This document shows positions 8,736 through 42,420 of a stretch of DNA of 64,000 bases, one piece after another. The stretch comes from an uncultured Desulfurococcaceae archaeon. Its GTDB lineage: Archaea > Thermoproteota > Thermoprotei_A > Sulfolobales > NBVN01. Each line of letters begins with the position of its first letter. Position 1 is the stretch's first letter. Where the stretch lies: positions 4,942 to 68,941 of the forward strand of contig CAZQFL010000006.1 of the NCBI GenBank assembly GCA_964592745.1. Reading direction: 5' to 3'. The translations under genes and the position numbers were made by a program. Below the pieces are notes generated by a model. It ran no database searches, was not told the DNA's origin, and was given only the letters and a program-made list of their open reading frames with translations.

Positions 8736-8833
8736 TGGTGCGGCGGCCGGGATTTGAACCCGGGATTTCCGGCGTTCTACGGGACCCCTACCTTGGAAGG
8801 CCGGCGTCCTAGACCAGGCTAGACGACCGCCGC
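8736..8833 (-). tRNA. tRNA-Gly (anticodon TCC) with about 19-nt canonical intron, CCA encoded
   Basis: Manual cloverleaf: acceptor GCGGCGG/CCGCCGC, D stem GTCT/GGAC, anticodon stem CCGGC/GCCGG with loop CTTCCA|intron, T arm CCGGG-TTCAAAT-CCCGG, then A-CCA. Confidence 0.85.
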
Positions 8834-13042: not shown

Positions 13043-13429
13043 CTAATCAATTACGTGAGTCATTCTTAGTAATTCCTTCATTATTATTGCAAACCATCCA
13101 ATTCTGGGTACGTGTAATAGGTACTTACCGATTACTTTACTTATGTGTATTAGTTCGGGGTTAGGATCTTTACTGGCATCACCTTTAGTTACAAATGCTA
13201 TCTCATTACCACTCCTCACAATCTTAATAACCCTGCTTATTACTATCTCTCCATTACTTATGTAGCCAATTACGTCACCAATACCAATATTGCTTTCACC
13301 ATGTATGAGCAATACAACATCACCAACACATAGTGTAGGTTTCATATCGTCATTAACAACCACGTGGACTGTAATACCTATGGGCTTAAGTGAAGTTATG
13401 GCAATTAATAGAAGGAGTAACACGACCAT
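13043..13429 (-). CDS. S26 signal-peptidase-like protein lacking the catalytic Ser and His
   Basis: Aligns along its length with the peptidase domain of 17403-18653. GSMRPT is replaced by DDMKPT, and VHRI by ISRV. The KGD box is retained. N-terminal TM anchor present. Confidence 0.65.
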   Translation of the reverse strand: MVVLLLLLIAITSLKPIGITVHVVVNDDMKPTLCVGDVVLLIHGESNIGIGDVIGYISNGEIVISRVIKIVRSGNEIAFVTKGDASKDPNPELIHISKVIGKYLLHVPRIGWFAIIMKELLRMTHVID

Positions 13430-13715: not shown

Positions 13716-14312
13716 GTGGGTAGACGTGATTATTTCGTAATATTGTCAAGATTGATTGAGGCATGTATGGGGGAGGAAGGCATAACCCACTTAATGATGA
13801 TTACTGGCCTTAACTATTTGCAGATAAGGCGTTATTTAAGAGAAGCGCTTGAAAGAGACCTCATAACTGAGGTAAGACGTGATGAAGGAAGGAAATACTA
13901 CAGAGCTACAAAGAAGGGTTTAAGATTTCTTAATGTAATGACCGAACTAGAGAGTGTGATGAGTGATGATAAAGTTCTTGGTCCATACAAAATAACAGAG
14001 TCAGTGGGCTTGAGGTTTGGAGAGTATGGTATGAGAATTATAGGGGTAAGAATATTTTCTAAGAGGAGAGATAGACTTAGTCTATATGTATGTGTATTAA
14101 GTAAGGCGTTAAAACCCGTTCGAATAACTGAGTTATGCAATAAATGCTTACTTGGCTGGGCTACATGTAGTAAAGTAGTGAATGAATTACTTAATAAGGG
14201 ACTATTAAGTAAAGCCACGAGTAGTAAGGGCAAGACGATATATGTAATCAGTAATAAAGGTAAGTACTTTATAGGAAAATACATAGAAGCACTTTTACTA
14301 TTAATACGTTAA
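13716..14312 (+). CDS. Tandem winged-helix DNA-binding protein
   Basis: Two wHTH-like repeats: ITGLNYLQIRRYLREALERDLITEV...YYRATKKGLRFL and ITELCNKCLLGWATCSKVVNELLNKGLLSK...YVISNKGKYF. Confidence 0.6.
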   Translation: MGRRDYFVILSRLIEACMGEEGITHLMMITGLNYLQIRRYLREALERDLITEVRRDEGRKYYRATKKGLRFLNVMTELESVMSDDKVLGPYKITESVGLRFGEYGMRIIGVRIFSKRRDRLSLYVCVLSKALKPVRITELCNKCLLGWATCSKVVNELLNKGLLSKATSSKGKTIYVISNKGKYFIGKYIEALLLLIR

Positions 14313-15623: not shown

Positions 15624-15724
15624 TGGTGCCGCGGCCGGGATTTGAACCCGGGTCACGGGCTATCCCCACGCAGGGCCCGCTGCTCGAGAGGCCCGCATAC
15701 TTGGCCGGGCTATACTACCGCGGC
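15624..15724 (-). tRNA. tRNA-Glu (anticodon CTC) with about 23-nt canonical intron, CCA encoded
   Basis: Acceptor GCCGCGG/CCGCGGC, anticodon stem CGGGC/GCCCG with loop CTCTCG|intron, 4-nt variable loop, T arm CCGGG-TTCAAAT-CCCGG. Confidence 0.8.
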
Positions 15725-15892: not shown

Positions 15893-16213
15893 TTAGTAGC
15901 TTTTAATTATCTTATCTAACACTTCCTTAATTTCAGGTTTTATGAAATATACTTTATAAACCCTATTGTCTGAGACCTTAATCTGCATTTCTTCAATAAA
16001 GTTTGTTGCTATGAGTTTCCTTAAATTTCTACTTAGTTTTTTGTGATTTACCTTAAGCCTTCTAGCTAATGATCTAAGACTTAATGGTCCATCATTCATT
16101 AATATTACAATTATCCCCACTCTGACATCGTCATTTAACAATGAGAATAATTTTATTACCAAACTACCACAGTTACATCTCCCCTGGAATTCCTCATCAG
16201 ACAATACTTTCAC
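15893..16213 (-). CDS. ArsR-type winged-helix transcriptional regulator
   Basis: 106 aa. VRVGIIVILMNDGPLSLRSLARRLKVNHKKLSRNLRKL forms an HTH. It lies directly downstream of the secreted-protein cluster on the same strand. Confidence 0.6.
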   Translation of the reverse strand: MKVLSDEEFQGRCNCGSLVIKLFSLLNDDVRVGIIVILMNDGPLSLRSLARRLKVNHKKLSRNLRKLIATNFIEEMQIKVSDNRVYKVYFIKPEIKEVLDKIIKSY

Positions 16214-16380
16214 AACGCCTTAAGTGCTAGTTAACTATGTGCGTAGAGATTATTAAATCTTTTAGACAGGCAAAGATGCGTCATGTCGGTATCACTTATA
16301 TTAAATATTTACCCAAATCCGTAGCAGTTATTTATAAGCAGGTGTTACTTCCGGGTAATCAAACTTATAAAAACTATCTA

Positions 16381-17406
16381 CTACGAATTCCTACCTACTT
16401 TAACTACATATACGACATCCCTATCCACTATAAAGTACTGCAATTTATCTCCATTACTAGGCTGTAGCTTAAGTATTGGCCTCTCAAGTAACCTAGCCAA
16501 TTTCGCTAATTCCTCTAGATTACTTAGTGAAATCTTCGTTACATTTGATCCTTTAGGTATACTATCAGTTGTCACTAATATATCTGAGTACTTTTTCTCA
16601 AATTTTTCCACAATATTAAATGATCTTAACCTCATCAACATGAATGTCGATGTTGTAAGGAATGAAATACCTACTATTGCTAAGATTATAGATATTAATC
16701 TGAGTGTATTAATGTTAAAGCCGATTATATTTAATTCCTTAGTCTTGCTTATCTTCCTACTTATGGTGGCTGAATTACTTAAATTACCCTTAACAATGAC
16801 TTTATTGTTACGCGTATCTATGGTAAGTGTGATTGGGTGAGTAAATGGGTCCATAACTACTCTAGAGTCTACCTTTAATCTTGACTTTACTGATGTATCT
16901 ACTATTACATCGAATGGTGTTGGTTTAAGACCTAGCTCTGAAGTTAGGTTGTTCATGAACATCAGTAATCTACTTAAATTAAGCTTTAATTCTCCAATAA
17001 CGTGTGAAGTGTTATTAAATGACTTACTGATTAATAGATATGTCTTAGACCAACCATCGGGATGGACAACTTTAACTGTCATATTTAAATTACCTGACGC
17101 AGTAGCGTTCCTGTAGTCAAGACTGTAATTGATATGTATGAACTTAACTATGGAGAGGTATATGGGTGTCTTAAGGTCATAACTTAGTTCTTCACCAAAG
17201 ACCTCATTAGGTATTAATAGGAATTTCAGTGAATATTCCGATCTTCTCTTAATGCTGAATAGCGTATATTCCTTAACTATGTAGGGCTTCTTAGTGAATG
17301 CAGCATAACCAATTACTCCTGCTAGAGATACTATAATTAATGAGGCTATTAGTAATGAGGTATTCAAGGTCCTTAAGAGCTTTCTTGAAGGCATGTCAAA
17401 CCTCAC
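16381..17406 (-). CDS. Bitopic membrane protein with a large extracytoplasmic domain (cluster component)
   Basis: 341 aa. N-terminal TM (LLIASLIIVSLAGVIGYAAF), about 200-aa Asn/Ser-rich external domain, second TM (ISIILAIVGISFLTTSTFMLM), about 90-aa cytoplasmic tail. 4-nt overlap with the upstream peptidase gene. Confidence 0.6.
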   Translation of the reverse strand: MRFDMPSRKLLRTLNTSLLIASLIIVSLAGVIGYAAFTKKPYIVKEYTLFSIKRRSEYSLKFLLIPNEVFGEELSYDLKTPIYLSIVKFIHINYSLDYRNATASGNLNMTVKVVHPDGWSKTYLLISKSFNNTSHVIGELKLNLSRLLMFMNNLTSELGLKPTPFDVIVDTSVKSRLKVDSRVVMDPFTHPITLTIDTRNNKVIVKGNLSNSATISRKISKTKELNIIGFNINTLRLISIILAIVGISFLTTSTFMLMRLRSFNIVEKFEKKYSDILVTTDSIPKGSNVTKISLSNLEELAKLARLLERPILKLQPSNGDKLQYFIVDRDVVYVVKVGRNS

Positions 17407-18653
17407 CAGTAAGTACCGCTTCTCTTAAATTTAAACTTGTGCCTCCTCATGAACCTCATAGATATTCCTATTATGATTAGTAAAGCTATTAGAGTAACCG
17501 CAATAACTCCTTCATAACTCTTTAACCCCTCCCTAAACACTATAGTAACCCAGCCTAACTTGGGTATGTATCCAACTACCTTACCTACTACAGACTCCCT
17601 ACGTACAATGAACGGGTCGGGATTAATGTAAGCGTCACCTTTCGTCCTAAAACCCTCTTTAGTAATTTGGTAAATCCTATGAACAATAACTTCTTTACCA
17701 CCAAATATGAATGCGATTACATCACCTACTTTAACATCGTAAGGAGAATGTAAGGCAACAAGTACTATATCACCAACATCATATGTAGGTCTCATACTAC
17801 CACTAATGATGACTAAAGGTATTATCTTAAAGTGTAGAGTTAAGAGTACCATAATAACTAAGACTAGAGATATCACTTCAGGTATGTATCTCTTAAGTTT
17901 ACTGAGCTTACTAAACTCAAAGAAATCCTTCGATACACCCCTAAGCTTCCGTATAGAGTATAGTATAGTAATTAAAACTCCATAGTATATCATTGACTGG
18001 AAACCACTCCATACCATACCTAGCTCGCCTGTATTAGCAACTATGGGTGAAAATCTCATATAACCATCGACTAGTAACCTAAAGATCATAGCTACCTTAA
18101 ACCCACCTAATATATGTAATAAAGTTAAAATCATACTATAAAATAAGCTTGGCAACATGGTTATAGGAGTCTTAGTAGCACTTAAGAAGTAATCCATTGC
18201 TACATAAATAGTTGAACCTAGGAATAACCCACTTAAGGTACCTAATATCATCCTACTCCAAAACCCTTTAACAAGACCTACCGTAGCTGATCTACCAACC
18301 TCAATACCAATAACTTGTACTAAGAATATAGCGAAGCTAATTATAAATGACGTAGGTGATAATTTAATTAGGTTTATTCTTAAGTTAAAGCCCCATATGA
18401 AGCCTAATGCGATGAATATAGTTATTAAGATAAGCCCTATACTAAATCCCTTATATGCATCCATAGCCCCTATACCACTACGATATATGTAGGGTATTGA
18501 CAGGATTATCAACGTAGGCCAAATTATGTAGGTTATGAGCGAACCTGCTGTTCCACCAATAAGTATAGCTACATTAGGAATGAGAAGTGTGAATGTAATT
18601 ATGAGAATACGAATCAACTTTATATTTACGTGTCTAGGTGCTTTATTTAGCAT
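17403..18653 (-). CDS. Polytopic membrane domain fused to an ER/archaeal-type S26 signal peptidase I
   Basis: 416 aa. Residues 1-270 contain about 7-8 predicted TM helices and no Cys. The C-terminal part carries SGSMRPT (Ser box), VHRI (His box), KGD, and a C-terminal TM. Confidence 0.75.
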   Translation of the reverse strand: MLNKAPRHVNIKLIRILIITFTLLIPNVAILIGGTAGSLITYIIWPTLIILSIPYIYRSGIGAMDAYKGFSIGLILITIFIALGFIWGFNLRINLIKLSPTSFIISFAIFLVQVIGIEVGRSATVGLVKGFWSRMILGTLSGLFLGSTIYVAMDYFLSATKTPITMLPSLFYSMILTLLHILGGFKVAMIFRLLVDGYMRFSPIVANTGELGMVWSGFQSMIYYGVLITILYSIRKLRGVSKDFFEFSKLSKLKRYIPEVISLVLVIMVLLTLHFKIIPLVIISGSMRPTYDVGDIVLVALHSPYDVKVGDVIAFIFGGKEVIVHRIYQITKEGFRTKGDAYINPDPFIVRRESVVGKVVGYIPKLGWVTIVFREGLKSYEGVIAVTLIALLIIIGISMRFMRRHKFKFKRSGTYW

Positions 18654-18667
18654 GACCTTACACTACA

Positions 18668-19114
18668 CTAAACTCCTAAAGTTATAGACACTTCAACCTC
18701 TTTAATACTAACTTCCTCAATATAAATCCATAAAACTGCTTTATCAGTCCTATGGAGTTTAACATGGTCTCTAGTAGATACGTCAGGAAACGGATTATTG
18801 TATCTAATCATGTTATCACGCATGGTTAAAGCATCAAAATCATTCCAAACCCTACTCTCACTAGGATTCTTAAACGGTCCGTAAAGGAATACCTTAATCA
18901 CACCCGCTTTAGGTATTGTCGTAACTTTAACATCCCTTAAGTATACATACATTTGGGGTTTAACGTAATTAGATATTATCAATCCTGCCCAACACCAATT
19001 CTTAAAGTCCTCTATAATAAATGATACCGAATTCCCACTAATTGACTTGATCTTGATAAAGTTCTCAGAGCTATTAAATGTACGTACATCGAAGGAATCC
19101 ATTATTAAAACCAT
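18668..19114 (-). CDS. Beta-rich accessory protein, paralogous to the C-terminal domain of 19116-20141
   Basis: 148 aa with no signal peptide. It shares KVFLYGPF, NPFPD[VI]S and A[VI]LW[IL][YF]IE blocks with residues about 200-341 of the upstream gene. Its start lies 1 nt after the upstream stop. Confidence 0.6.
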   Translation of the reverse strand: MVLIMDSFDVRTFNSSENFIKIKSISGNSVSFIIEDFKNWCWAGLIISNYVKPQMYVYLRDVKVTTIPKAGVIKVFLYGPFKNPSESRVWNDFDALTMRDNMIRYNNPFPDVSTRDHVKLHRTDKAVLWIYIEEVSIKEVEVSITLGV

Positions 19115-19115
19115 G

Positions 19116-20141
19116 TTAACTTGTTAATTCCACGATAATCTCCTTAGGCCCTGGATCACCCTCAATAAAGAGCCATAAAATCGCTTTACCATTACTTGGA
19201 AGGTTTATGTGATCCGAGGGTGATATGTCTGGGAAAGGATTTCCATCATTATTCATATTAATGAGCATATCACATATACTTACATGTCCCCATACACCAG
19301 AGTTACCTACTGATATGAAGGGACCATATAGGAATACTTTTAAGTCATCAACATCTTCAGCATACGCTACTATATTATCCCTTGAAAGAGTTACTGTCTT
19401 CCCTATATTGTTAGATATTACTAAGCCAATCCAACCCCAACCTCCCTTAAATTCACTAAACTTAATCACAATCTTAGATCCATCATTCATTAGACTAACG
19501 AAACCCTCCTCACTTATACATGTATACTTCATGTTAAGCTTAAATGCGTGCGATTTATAGCTTGTAAACTTAAAGCATTTCTTATGATTTGCCCAGTAGG
19601 TATACGTTAATTCAACCCTAAATGAATATGTGGAATTCTCTCTAATACTTTGAAGTACTTCAATATGAAGTACGTACTTATGACTTTCACCAGGATCTAA
19701 CTCTATATCTGTAGGTGGTACTAATGTCACATTAACTACATCGCTAATTAAGGAATAGTTTTCAACAATATCATAAAGCTTCACAGGTAAAGTACCAGTG
19801 TTGGTAACATTAAATGTTATGTCAGTCCTATAGCCAGGATAAGCATTATTAAGTATCAATGATAGCGTTACTACATTACCTAGATCGTCCCACTCAGCTT
19901 CGATCAAACTGCATGATGCTATATCCTTACCCTCAGGGTTATTATAGCCGGGTATTTGTTGATCCGAGCCTAAATCACTACAACTCCAATTACTAAGTGA
20001 GACACAATCATAACCCGTGCCAACAGAAACACCGATATGCAATTTAAGACTATCACTCCATTGAGCCGCAGCAAATGAAAACAAGACAATAAACATGAGT
20101 AGTGTAGGTAGGAGAAAAAACGGTTCTTTTTTATTTAGCAA
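19116..20141 (-). CDS. Secreted TasA/camelysin-like protein with an extra C-terminal domain
   Basis: Signal ...FIVLFSFAAA|QWSDSLKLHIGVSVGTG. Core blocks KDIASC, NNAYPGY, VTNTGTLPVK, PGESHKY. C-terminal 140 aa are homologous to 18668-19114. Confidence 0.6.
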   Translation of the reverse strand: MLNKKEPFFLLPTLLMFIVLFSFAAAQWSDSLKLHIGVSVGTGYDCVSLSNWSCSDLGSDQQIPGYNNPEGKDIASCSLIEAEWDDLGNVVTLSLILNNAYPGYRTDITFNVTNTGTLPVKLYDIVENYSLISDVVNVTLVPPTDIELDPGESHKYVLHIEVLQSIRENSTYSFRVELTYTYWANHKKCFKFTSYKSHAFKLNMKYTCISEEGFVSLMNDGSKIVIKFSEFKGGWGWIGLVISNNIGKTVTLSRDNIVAYAEDVDDLKVFLYGPFISVGNSGVWGHVSICDMLINMNNDGNPFPDISPSDHINLPSNGKAILWLFIEGDPGPKEIIVELTS

Positions 20142-20152
20142 TATTTAACACC

Positions 20153-20791
20153 TCATTCATTCCACTGCCTAGCCTTTAACTTTATTTCTACTATAAATGA
20201 TGAATTCTCTTCAGCTCCCTGCTTAACGTGCATTTCTACGGTGAAGTCTTTATTCTCGCCTGGATGTAGCTGTATATCTTGGATGAAAGATGTAAAGCAT
20301 CCCCACATGTTTATATCCGCATCTCCATCACCATCCGCATCACACTCATAATAATAACCATAAGCATTATTATATTTAAGTTCGCAATCTCTTGATTGTT
20401 CAGGATGATTCAATGGATATACTTTAACGCTCTCAATTTTTACCTTCACTGGTATGGATCCTAGGTTTTGAACTCCCACGGTATTTACCTTACAAATGAA
20501 GCATGGATAAGCATTGTCAATTATTATCTTGAGTTCTTGATCATTATTGCCAAACGGATTATTTAGATCTTCATCTTGTATTTCCTCAAATACAGCTGAA
20601 CAACTAGCTACATCTTTATCATTAATTTCTGAAACCTCCTCAACATATATAGTACCGCTGAAGCTCACATCAACTTCTCCTGTATTTATTGTTGCATGTA
20701 TCTTTAGCGTATCATACCACATAGCAAGAGCAGAACCGAGTATAACAACTAGGAGCAGCGGGATTGCTAAAAATGCTATTAGTTTATTCAT
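20153..20791 (-). CDS. Secreted TasA/camelysin-like protein
   Basis: Signal ...VVILGSALA|MWYDTLKIHATINTGEVDV. Core blocks KDVASC, DNAYPCF, NLGSIPVK, QGAEEN...QWNE. Contains a Cys-flanked acidic loop, CDADGDGDADINMWGC. Confidence 0.6.
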   Translation of the reverse strand: MNKLIAFLAIPLLLVVILGSALAMWYDTLKIHATINTGEVDVSFSGTIYVEEVSEINDKDVASCSAVFEEIQDEDLNNPFGNNDQELKIIIDNAYPCFICKVNTVGVQNLGSIPVKVKIESVKVYPLNHPEQSRDCELKYNNAYGYYYECDADGDGDADINMWGCFTSFIQDIQLHPGENKDFTVEMHVKQGAEENSSFIVEIKLKARQWNE

Positions 20792-20813
20792 ATTCTATTC
20801 ACCCTAACTTTAC

Positions 20814-21377
20814 TTATGATGGTGCTTCATTCCATTGTACGAAGTATAGTTCCACTTGGTGAGTGTATGTATGGTTTTCTTCAGCTCCTTGAAGTATGTG
20901 AATCTTGATAGTGAAGGTAGCTGATTTACCAGGATCTATTTGTTTTGGTTCTAACTCATAAAGTATTTCTACACCGTCATCAAGAGTTTCTCTATCTGAG
21001 AATGGGGATAGCGTTCCAGTAGCATTACTATAAGGTCCCTTTACAGGTATAGTTCCGGTATTATTCACTGTGAATGTTACATTACACCAATAGCTTGGAT
21101 ATCCATTCTCTATAGTTATATTTAAGTCCAGATCATTATCTCCGTAAGAATTACCTGAATCCTCATCCTCGATCTCCATCAGCTCTACATGACAGTTAGC
21201 TACATCCTTACCGTGATCGTTTTCGACACTATCCACCTTTCCAAATTTTACGTCTACATCTCCTGTACTTATTGTTGCTTTTATTTTTAGGGTGTCATAC
21301 CACATAGCAAGAGCAGAACCGAGTACTATTAGTAACATTAGTCCTGCTATTACGGGTATTAAGCCCTTTATTCGCAC
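20814..21377 (-). CDS. Secreted TasA/camelysin-like protein
   Basis: Signal ...LLIVLGSALA|MWYDTLKIKATISTGDVDV. Core blocks KDVANC, ENGYPSY, NNTGTIPVK, QGAEEN...QWNE. GTG start follows GAGGTG. Confidence 0.6.
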   Translation of the reverse strand: MRIKGLIPVIAGLMLLIVLGSALAMWYDTLKIKATISTGDVDVKFGKVDSVENDHGKDVANCHVELMEIEDEDSGNSYGDNDLDLNITIENGYPSYWCNVTFTVNNTGTIPVKGPYSNATGTLSPFSDRETLDDGVEILYELEPKQIDPGKSATFTIKIHILQGAEENHTYTHQVELYFVQWNEAPS

Positions 21378-21496
21378 TTAATATACACCTCAAAAGTTTT
21401 AGGTTTACATATCATTTGAGCCTACACATACAGTTGAACTTATTGTTTAAAAATAAGTGATGCATATGTTTACGTAAGAAGTCGCTTTAAAAAGCT

Positions 21497-21946
21497 CTAT
21501 ACCTTAGATTTACCTCTCAATATCCTCGTCTTAAGGAGTATGAGTATTAGGGCTATTAGAAGGAATAATTGACCTAAGTCAACGCTTAAGACTGTATGTC
21601 CATCGTGGATTAATATGTTTATCAATGGTAGTACATATACTTTGAGACTTCTCCGACTGATGGCTAAGTGTTCATAAATAAGTAATGATATGCCTAAAGT
21701 TACTACAGATAGTATTAGTAGGTAGTCAGTAAGATTTGATGATTTAATTATCCTCAATATCAATACTGTAAGTAAAGTAATGAATATTGCTATAATTAGC
21801 TTACCTAGTGAGTTTATGTATATGGTAGAGATCTCGGTTAAACTTGAGTTAATTATGGAGTATGTGATGATTAATGTTAATGTATATATTAATAATGCCT
21901 TACTTAATGTCTTTACTAACTCAGCCCTTCCAGCTTTGCTCATCAA
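21497..21946 (-). CDS. Small integral membrane protein (4 predicted TM helices)
   Basis: 149 aa, strongly hydrophobic. Same strand as, and immediately upstream of, the secreted-protein cluster. No family recognised. Confidence 0.45.
   Translation of the reverse strand: MMSKAGRAELVKTLSKALLIYTLTLIITYSIINSSLTEISTIYINSLGKLIIAIFITLLTVLILRIIKSSNLTDYLLILSVVTLGISLLIYEHLAISRRSLKVYVLPLINILIHDGHTVLSVDLGQLFLLIALILILLKTRILRGKSKV

Positions 21947-42323: not shown

Positions 42324-42420
<97 letters not shown>

Follow-up and report, generated by a model that had tools for sequence, protein, structure and literature searches.

Secreted protein fibres of the TasA/AbpX kind contribute to biofilm formation. TasA-superfamily fibres include those built from AbpX of Pyrodictium abyssi (PDB 9SJ2/9RHP), a donor-strand-complemented, calcium-dependent fibril subunit whose structure was solved by cryo-electron microscopy and whose assembly is chaperone-free and triggered by calcium. 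An earlier Nature Communications paper reported that AbpX homologues adjoin signal peptidase I (SPase I) and other AbpX/TasA-like genes, and Sleutel et al. (bioRxiv January 2026, 10.64898/2026.01.04.697558) described abpX loci in which the major subunit is accompanied by minor ones resembling AbpX, by a tip protein and by an SPase I with ten transmembrane (TM) helices; the loci also encode an accessory protein of the DUF5305 family and, in some cases, a regulator. Accessory-rich loci of this type occur in Zestosphaera tikiterensis, Ignisphaera aggregans, Desulfurococcus amylolyticus and others (10.64898/2026.01.04.697558). Here we describe a minus-strand gene cluster in a 64-kb stretch of DNA (the window, meaning the whole stretch analyzed) from an uncultured Ignisphaera/Desulfurococcales-like archaeon, which joins the carriers of the full abpX fibre module. 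Its genes encode three subunits (A, B and C), a free copy of the C-terminal beta domain of C (D), a signal peptidase and a DUF5305 protein; a small winged helix-turn-helix (wHTH) regulator follows and a small membrane protein, G0, precedes them. We consider it likely that these genes form an abpX-type locus of the TasA superfamily, which would supply both a secreted donor-strand-complemented fibre or biomatrix and the machinery to process it.

The cluster matches the published abpX composition item for item and adds a further example to a system already known. An earlier note on this DNA had read the genes as a SipW/TasA-like cluster for secreted fibres that brings along a signal peptidase, which is upheld by AbpX homology, the TIGR04088 and TIGR02228 models and synteny. 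The same note knew of no described system of this make-up, which is now out of date: abpX loci, published in 2025-2026, already comprise additional subunit paralogues, a subunit extended by a further domain, a peptidase with a large polytopic part and a bitopic DUF5305 protein. Features shared with these loci are an AbpX-homologous subunit, donor-strand residues at +2 and +4, an acidic isoelectric point (pI), minor and tip subunits, an SPase I with about ten TM helices, a DUF5305 gene and a transcription factor. Two features differ: the distal domain of the window tip protein comes from a very rare family unrelated to the AbpX core (hhalign), and a signal-less free copy of this domain precedes the peptidase gene. 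These two constitute a modest residual novelty. The P. abyssi locus, in contrast, comprises AbpX and a peptidase only.

Other known systems share parts of this design. The haloarchaeal Tat-fimbriae, or Tafi, system (tafA-G; PMC11821415, PMC12337348) has a donor-strand fibre (predicted for the window), major and minor subunits, a locus-encoded peptidase (TafD), a DUF5305 protein (TafG) and a regulator (TafB). Deletion of tafD leaves the major subunit unprocessed and abolishes fimbriae, and TafG is proposed to assist TafD (PMC11821415, PMC12337348). Tafi differs in using Tat signals, where those of the window are of Sec type, in the four TM helices and extra C-terminal domain of TafD, and in subunits belonging to another subfamily. 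The tapA-sipW-tasA operon of Bacillus subtilis also combines a secreted beta-sandwich subunit, donor-strand exchange (again predicted for the window), an archaeal-type peptidase within the operon, a SipW-type signal model that A also matches, and an accessory secreted protein with a similar N-terminal strand. The window cluster, however, has three subunit paralogues and neither a Pfam Peptidase_M73 match nor a TapA homologue, TapA-like matches being absent from it in Pfam and NCBIfam scans. Moreover, SipW has two TM helices rather than ten, and tapA-sipW-tasA has no DUF5305 partner.

The AbpA bundling pili of Pyrobaculum calidifontis (PDB 7UEG; PMC9245690) likewise come from Thermoproteota, belong to the TasA superfamily, polymerize by donor strand and are proposed to bundle cells together, but their operon encodes the TapA-like AbpB and lacks a signal peptidase of its own. 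The AbpA chain was not among the PDB hits of our A-family profile at E<=10, and the Pyrobaculum operon is a more distant relative than abpX loci. Bacterial chaperone-usher pili resemble the window system in having incomplete Ig-like/beta-sandwich subunits completed by the N-terminal strand of a neighbor, in their adhesin tip subunits, and in weak Foldseek matches of a window model to the FimG and PapG pilin domains; the window system differs in having no chaperone, usher or outer membrane.

Subunits A, B and C resemble AbpX and carry its donor-strand signature

Searching all PDB chain sequences with A (phmmer) returned P. abyssi AbpX (9sj2_C, E 1.4e-9). A profile of 55 A-family sequences matched the same chain at E 2.5e-18 and nearly over its full length, with profile positions 26-172 aligned to chain positions 2-148 of 163, and also matched the AbpX crystal form 9rhp at E 2.3e-13. 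Hydropathy analysis finds one N-terminal hydrophobic segment in each of the three subunits. In A, a signal peptide occupies residues 1-24 (..LGSALA|) and is followed by the predicted donor strand M-W-Y-D-TLKIKATISTG; the signal/mature junctions read ALA|MWYD in A and B and AAA|QWSD in C (..FSFAAA|). The A-x-A site and the W-x-D motif noticed earlier are both present, although the motif does not follow the site immediately: Trp stands at +2, one residue in (A-x-A|[MQ]-W-x-D). This Trp (W26) is invariant across the 55 family sequences, and the Asp at +4 (D28) is invariant among the 20 closest. Both agree with the pattern of AbpX donor strands, which are amphipathic, directly follow an SPase I site and place an aromatic residue at +2 with an acidic one at +4, positions that are conserved in AbpX homologues and structurally critical (Sleutel et al., 10.64898/2026.01.04.697558).

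Composition points in the same direction. The mature proteins have pI values of 4.28 (A), 4.35 (B) and 4.67 (C) and contain 17.8%, 18.0% and 12.1% Asp plus Glu, respectively; a pI of about 4 and about 15% Asp/Glu are reported for the AbpX family (10.64898/2026.01.04.697558). A also has five N-glycosylation sequons. The NCBIfam model for SipW-cognate signal peptides, TIGR04088, matched A at 22.2 bits (cutoff 19), and the same scan reported a match for neither B, whose N-terminus is almost identical to that of A, nor C. An N-terminal pattern of the SipW-dependent TasA/camelysin type had been suggested; the SipW part is supported by the match of A, and the Pfam Peptidase_M73/TasA part is not.

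The three subunits are paralogues, as the earlier note had it. In BLASTP comparisons, A and B are 39% identical (E 3e-42), A and residues 10-183 of C 31% (E 2e-22), and B and C 27% (E 4e-13). This paralogy, like that between the C-terminal part of C and D, is far beyond chance. Every motif previously quoted for the subunits and the peptidase was recovered: KDVANC/KDVASC/KDIASC, NGYP/NAYP and N-x-G-[ST]-[IL]-PVK lie at equivalent positions in A, B and C, and QGAEEN and QWNE occur in both A and B. B is further distinguished by an insert with a Cys-flanked D-A-D-G-D-G-D-A-D loop (residues 151-159), which may bind calcium; B orthologues keep this DxDxDG-type loop, and so do many homologues in the A family. 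C consists of an AbpX-like domain to about residue 185 and a C-terminal beta domain at about 190-341 (window 19119-19574). Its gene is third, between the subunit and peptidase genes, like tip-like genes with other distal domains, and C may be a tip or adhesin-type subunit. A word search with C found only three homologues.

A signal peptidase with about ten TM helices is encoded next to a DUF5305 protein

The cluster peptidase matches TIGR02228 of NCBIfam at 84.5 bits (cutoff 51.85) and Pfam Peptidase_S26 at 25.8 bits (cutoff 22.9), and a PDB sequence search aligned it with human SEC11A and SEC11C at E about 1e-9. Its catalytic residues are Ser286 in GSMRPT (at 285), His325 in VHRI (at 324) and Asp340 in KGD (at 338). 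Ser paired with His, not a Ser/Lys pair, together with the conserved Asp identifies the archaeal/endoplasmic reticulum (ER) type, S26B, and the earlier assignment to that type stands. Of its roughly ten hydrophobic segments, hydropathy analysis places about eight TM helices at the N-terminus and one at the C-terminus, with an anchor helix preceding the catalytic domain between them. The enzyme had been described as fused to a polytopic domain of about 270 amino acids (aa). The domain exists, but it measures about 250 aa (about eight helices plus the anchor helix).

The DUF5305 protein matches Pfam PF17231 at 53.8 bits (cutoff 29) and has no sequence match in the PDB. Its two TM helices span residues of about 13-39 and 226-260, with eight N-glycosylation sequons between the helices versus one after them. 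The corresponding "SPase I accessory" of abpX loci is described as having a beta-sandwich outside the cell, a domain in the cytoplasm and two TM helices (10.64898/2026.01.04.697558). The start of the DUF5305 gene overlaps the stop of the peptidase gene by 4 nt, suggesting that the two are translationally coupled. By analogy with the role proposed in the literature, the protein is a putative signal-peptidase accessory subunit.

The window encodes a second S26-type homologue, of 128 aa (13043-13429, minus strand), which matches TIGR02228 at 65.8 bits, above cutoff, and is 36% identical to the cluster peptidase. It has Asp at the position of the catalytic Ser (NDDMKPT vs SGSMRPT) and Ser at that of the catalytic His (ISRV vs VHRI), and because of these two replacements it looks catalytically inactive. 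A similar small open reading frame (ORF), annotated as Peptidase_S24, lies near a related locus of Zestosphaera sp. (L018, 4576-4959).

The module is conserved in related genomes

We detected 75 homologues of A, the closest of which (96% identical) is from a metagenome; no sequence identical to A is on record. The named homologues belong to Ignisphaera, Zestosphaera, Desulfurococcaceae and "Sulfolobales archaeon" metagenome-assembled genomes. Annotating related loci (numbered with the prefix L) by means of the window proteins revealed the shared arrangement in at least ten genomes and metagenome contigs of Ignisphaera/Desulfurococcales type. In L001+L013, L004, L005, L007-L010, L016, L017 and L019/L020 the genes run A-B-[tip]-[D]-SPase-DUF5305-[wHTH] (Table 1). 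In the closest relative (L013 + L001), gene order and flanks are identical to those of the window. B orthologues are second in L004, L005, L007-L010, L012 and L014, the DUF5305 gene comes next after the peptidase gene in every complete related locus, and a wHTH homologue follows the DUF5305 gene in L001, L004, L005, L007, L008 and L016. The co-occurrence that the earlier note had proposed to look for is thus conserved in many genomes. Because the neighborhoods differ between lineages, the module moves as a unit, and the window confirms it as a conserved, portable set of subunits, tip, ten-TM peptidase, DUF5305 protein and regulator.

Purifying selection acts on every gene, as judged against the closest relative. 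The ratios of nonsynonymous to synonymous substitution (dN/dS) are 0.13 for C, 0.14 for D, 0.18 for the DUF5305 gene, 0.19 for the peptidase gene and 0.26 for A, and are rough, as dS is near saturation.

G0 shows a different distribution. Between Memo and A, a G0 homologue (65% identity) was found in the closest relative only (L013/L014); none lies upstream of A in L003-L010, and G0 matches no family in Pfam or NCBIfam. We considered G0 as a core component and rejected it on this restricted occurrence.

L016 (1035-4904) has no separate A or B and encodes a 372-aa subunit with an extra distal domain, a D-like protein, the peptidase and the DUF5305 protein; at this locus the fibre may be made of the tip-type protein alone. 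At L006 (8585-9901, a gene that includes a masked run of N) and L019 (8318-9700), genes in the tip position have SdrD_B-like (MSCRAMM adhesin B-repeat) domains instead of the window beta domain.

Proposed assembly and alternative interpretations

We propose that the Sec pathway would export A, B and C while their N-terminal signal peptides remain embedded in the membrane, and that the Sec11/SipW-type peptidase of the cluster, probably with the DUF5305 protein, would cut after A-x-A. The cut would free the N-terminus, whose first 12-15 residues (x-W-x-D-[ST]-L-K...) would form the donor strand; because this strand begins at the new N-terminus, cleavage would be the step that makes a subunit competent for insertion. 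The strand would then enter the open beta-sandwich groove of a neighboring subunit, yielding a polar fibre, and calcium held by acidic residues would aid insertion and stabilize the joint, by analogy with AbpX. A would be the major and B the minor subunit, and C, which adds a distal beta domain to the donor strand and core that all three have in common, would be of the tip/adhesin type. Regulation of the fibre operon probably falls to the small wHTH protein. For fibre formation at this locus we draw on the studies of AbpX, TasA and Tafi, from which we also infer cleavage by the cluster peptidase, polymerization, calcium dependence, the major, minor and tip roles, and a part in biofilm or cohesion. 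Experimental work has so far dealt only with the minimal P. abyssi AbpX, and the roles of minor subunits, tip, peptidase and DUF5305 protein are predictions; well-defined loci such as the window cluster offer material for testing them.

The predicted structure of A is in line with this scheme. AlphaFold2 models of A and C are all-beta, with mean confidence (pLDDT) of 85 for A, whose residues ~26-40 are of low confidence or unplaced, and of 86 overall and 95-98 in the C-terminal beta domain for C. A beta-sandwich with an undocked N-terminal strand, as modeled for A, would be expected of a subunit that is completed in trans.

Five points weigh against the proposed fibre locus. First, in the search that the earlier note had suggested, Pfam Peptidase_M73/TasA (PF12389) gave no match at E<=1 among A, B, C and 20 A-family members. 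Second, a Foldseek comparison of the A and C models with the PDB retrieved no AbpX, TasA or AbpA and nothing above a TM score of 0.3, with queries that contained the signal helix and, for C, two domains, and with a library copy that may be without AbpX entries. Because of these two negatives, the TasA link rests on AbpX homology and the published superfamily analysis. Third, the A protein of the window has no DxDxDG-type loop, unlike B and many homologues of the A family. Fourth, to name A the major and B the minor subunit is a guess; A is the likely major subunit because its gene comes first, with a TATA-like box and a Shine-Dalgarno-like sequence of its own, and it is closest to AbpX. Fifth, the cluster peptidase could also serve general secretion because the only other S26-like ORF in the window is without the catalytic Ser and His.

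Two alternatives deserve consideration in this light. For the subunits, Pfam gave no more than weak hints, pointing to CARDB, DUF7507, BsuPI and Ig-like domains, and Foldseek yielded only weak matches to generic beta-sandwiches (ApaG, FimG/PapG, GH115 accessory domains and Als adhesins), as might be seen if A, B and C were non-polymerizing secreted or surface proteins (S-layer-associated proteins or CARDB/Ig-like adhesins) with a conserved N-terminal motif that acts only as a recognition element for the specialized peptidase. We regard this as distinctly unlikely, since the profile match to AbpX, a protein with a solved fibril structure, is near full length, the conserved residues are exactly the donor-strand positions used in the AbpX fibril, and the AlphaFold2 monomer leaves the N-terminal strand undocked.

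The fifth point, taken further, would make the 416-aa peptidase the cell's general SPase I, adjoining the fibre genes by chance, an idea that draws on the same Asp and Ser replacements in the small homologue at 13043-13429. It is unlikely. The ten-TM peptidase and DUF5305 pair accompanies abpX-type subunit genes into different neighborhoods, and such a pair is reported to be specific to abpX-type loci in both archaea and bacteria (10.64898/2026.01.04.697558). The operon coupling is tight (14-nt gap, 4-nt overlap), and TafD provides a precedent for a locus peptidase that is needed for subunit processing.

A rare domain of the putative tip subunit also occurs as a free, signal-less protein

The earlier note had observed a beta-rich domain both fused to a subunit and free. 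BLASTP bears this out: residues 210-340 of C and residues 15-145 of D are 37% identical (E 1e-21). The family is very small. An exhaustive profile search of 1.84 billion representative proteins yielded 22 members, and the domain has no match in Pfam, NCBIfam or PDB sequences. An origin as a degenerate duplicate of the AbpX-like core was considered and rejected (hhalign probability 2.4%).

Three arrangements of the C-type beta domain are seen: as an extension of a subunit, preceded by a donor strand only, and free and signal-less. The second is represented by relatives of about 200 aa (P0081, P0086, P0087, P0093, P0094, P0096 and an ORF of L011) that consist of a signal peptide, a donor strand and the distal domain. 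Because such proteins can donate a strand and have no AbpX core to accept one, the distal domain of C fits an end-capping or tip role. The three arrangements of this rare domain provide a small, concrete handle on how the fibres are capped or controlled.

The third arrangement is that of D, which has no signal peptide, hydrophobic or TM segment, or donor strand. It is also without the Cys pair of the secreted forms; because all free copies are without these Cys, they form a separate clade. An in-frame stop lies four codons upstream of the D ATG, and a hidden upstream start or signal peptide was rejected on account of in-frame stops. Of six loci with a signal-less D-like gene, five (the window, L001/L002, L005, L016 and L017) have it directly upstream of the peptidase gene; the L006 copy is placed elsewhere in its locus. 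The searchable text of the abpX papers makes no mention of a signal-less free tip-domain component. We tentatively suggest, with low confidence, that D is a cytoplasmic component of the fibre system, either a pre-export chaperone or decoy for the tip or a partner or regulator of the complex of ten-TM peptidase and DUF5305 protein. TasA-superfamily fibres are regarded as assembling without chaperones, and the searchable literature describes no such intracellular factor for them.

Could D instead be made as part of C? In the window and L001/L002, a single nucleotide separates the C stop from the D start, and the D frame stays open for a short distance on either side of the C stop. A +1 frameshift at that stop (AGT-TAA-C-ATG) would give a tip with two tandem beta domains. 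We hold this to be highly improbable. Because of the D-frame stop four codons before the ATG, only a few nucleotides are left for such a shift; the spacer is 66-71 nt in L005 and L016, with D-frame stops in the L005 spacer; the L006 gene lies elsewhere; and the Cys-less free copies form a clade apart from the secreted forms. We therefore treat D as a separate protein.

Locus layout and neighboring features

An ORF scan confirmed the six tightly spaced minus-strand genes previously reported between 21377 and 16381, including the spacings of 22, 11, 1, 14 and -4 nt from A through B, C, D and the peptidase gene to the DUF5305 gene (Table 1). The small membrane gene upstream and the ArsR-type regulator downstream were likewise found where described. 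G0 has about four hydrophobic segments, and its gene is separated from A by 119 nt. Within this interval the sequence shows a TATA-like TTTTTAAA at 21453-21446 and a Shine-Dalgarno-like GAGGTG at 21391-21386, which ends 8 nt before the GTG start codon of A; together they form a putative promoter and leader serving the subunit genes. The wHTH protein matches Pfam HTH_5 at 25.1 bits (cutoff 22), and its matches to Lrs14/Sta1 are weak. A 167-nt, AT-rich spacer lies between its gene and the DUF5305 gene, and the wHTH gene probably has its own promoter. The G+C content of the window is 34-43%, in keeping with the group to which the named A homologues belong.

Table 1. Features of the window cluster, free copies of the tip beta domain, and gene order in related loci
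Feature or locus	Position	Strand	Length or gene order
A, AbpX-like subunit, candidate major	20814-21377	-	187 aa
B, second AbpX-like subunit, candidate minor	20153-20791	-	212 aa
C, putative tip-type subunit	19116-20141	-	341 aa
D, free paralogue of C beta domain (free D-like copy of the window)	18668-19114	-	148 aa
Signal peptidase I, archaeal/ER (Sec11/SipW) type	17403-18653	-	416 aa
DUF5305 protein	16381-17406	-	341 aa, 2 TM helices
wHTH regulator, ArsR/Lrs14-like, small	15893-16213	-	106 aa
G0, small membrane protein, doubtful system member	21497-21946	-	149 aa, ~4 TM
Candidate promoter and leader of subunit genes (read from sequence)	21386-21453	-	
Free D-like copy, L001	1330-1779		
Free D-like copy, L005	3361-3804		
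Free D-like copy, L016	2234-2674		
Free D-like copy, L017	399-824		
Free D-like copy, L006	13794-14159		
L013 + L001 (one metagenome, closest relative)			Memo-G0-A-B and (B)-C-D-SPase-DUF5305-wHTH-YhbY-Rpr2-EMG1
L004, L008			A-B-SPase-DUF5305-wHTH
L007, L009, L010			A-B-C-SPase-DUF5305
L005			A-B-tip(373 aa, other distal domain)-D-SPase-DUF5305-wHTH
L016			tip(372 aa)-D-SPase-DUF5305-wHTH
L017			C-like-D-SPase
L019/L020			2 HTH genes-AbpX-like-minor-tip(460 aa, Pfam SdrD_B)-SPase-DUF5305

Outside the cluster, the window contains three tRNA genes of 94-98 nt that probably contain introns (15627-15724, minus; 8736-8833, minus; 42324-42420, plus). Intron-containing tRNA genes are usual in Thermoproteota. 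The one at 15627-15724, beside the cluster, was found by Rfam and missed by ARAGORN, and for the one at 8736-8833 ARAGORN gives an odd four-base anticodon. Between the inactive-looking S26 homologue and the EMG1/Nep1 gene, there is a plus-strand gene (13716-14312) whose 198-aa product has two winged-helix stretches of the Sso10a family (NCBIfam NF053610, 70.5 bits).

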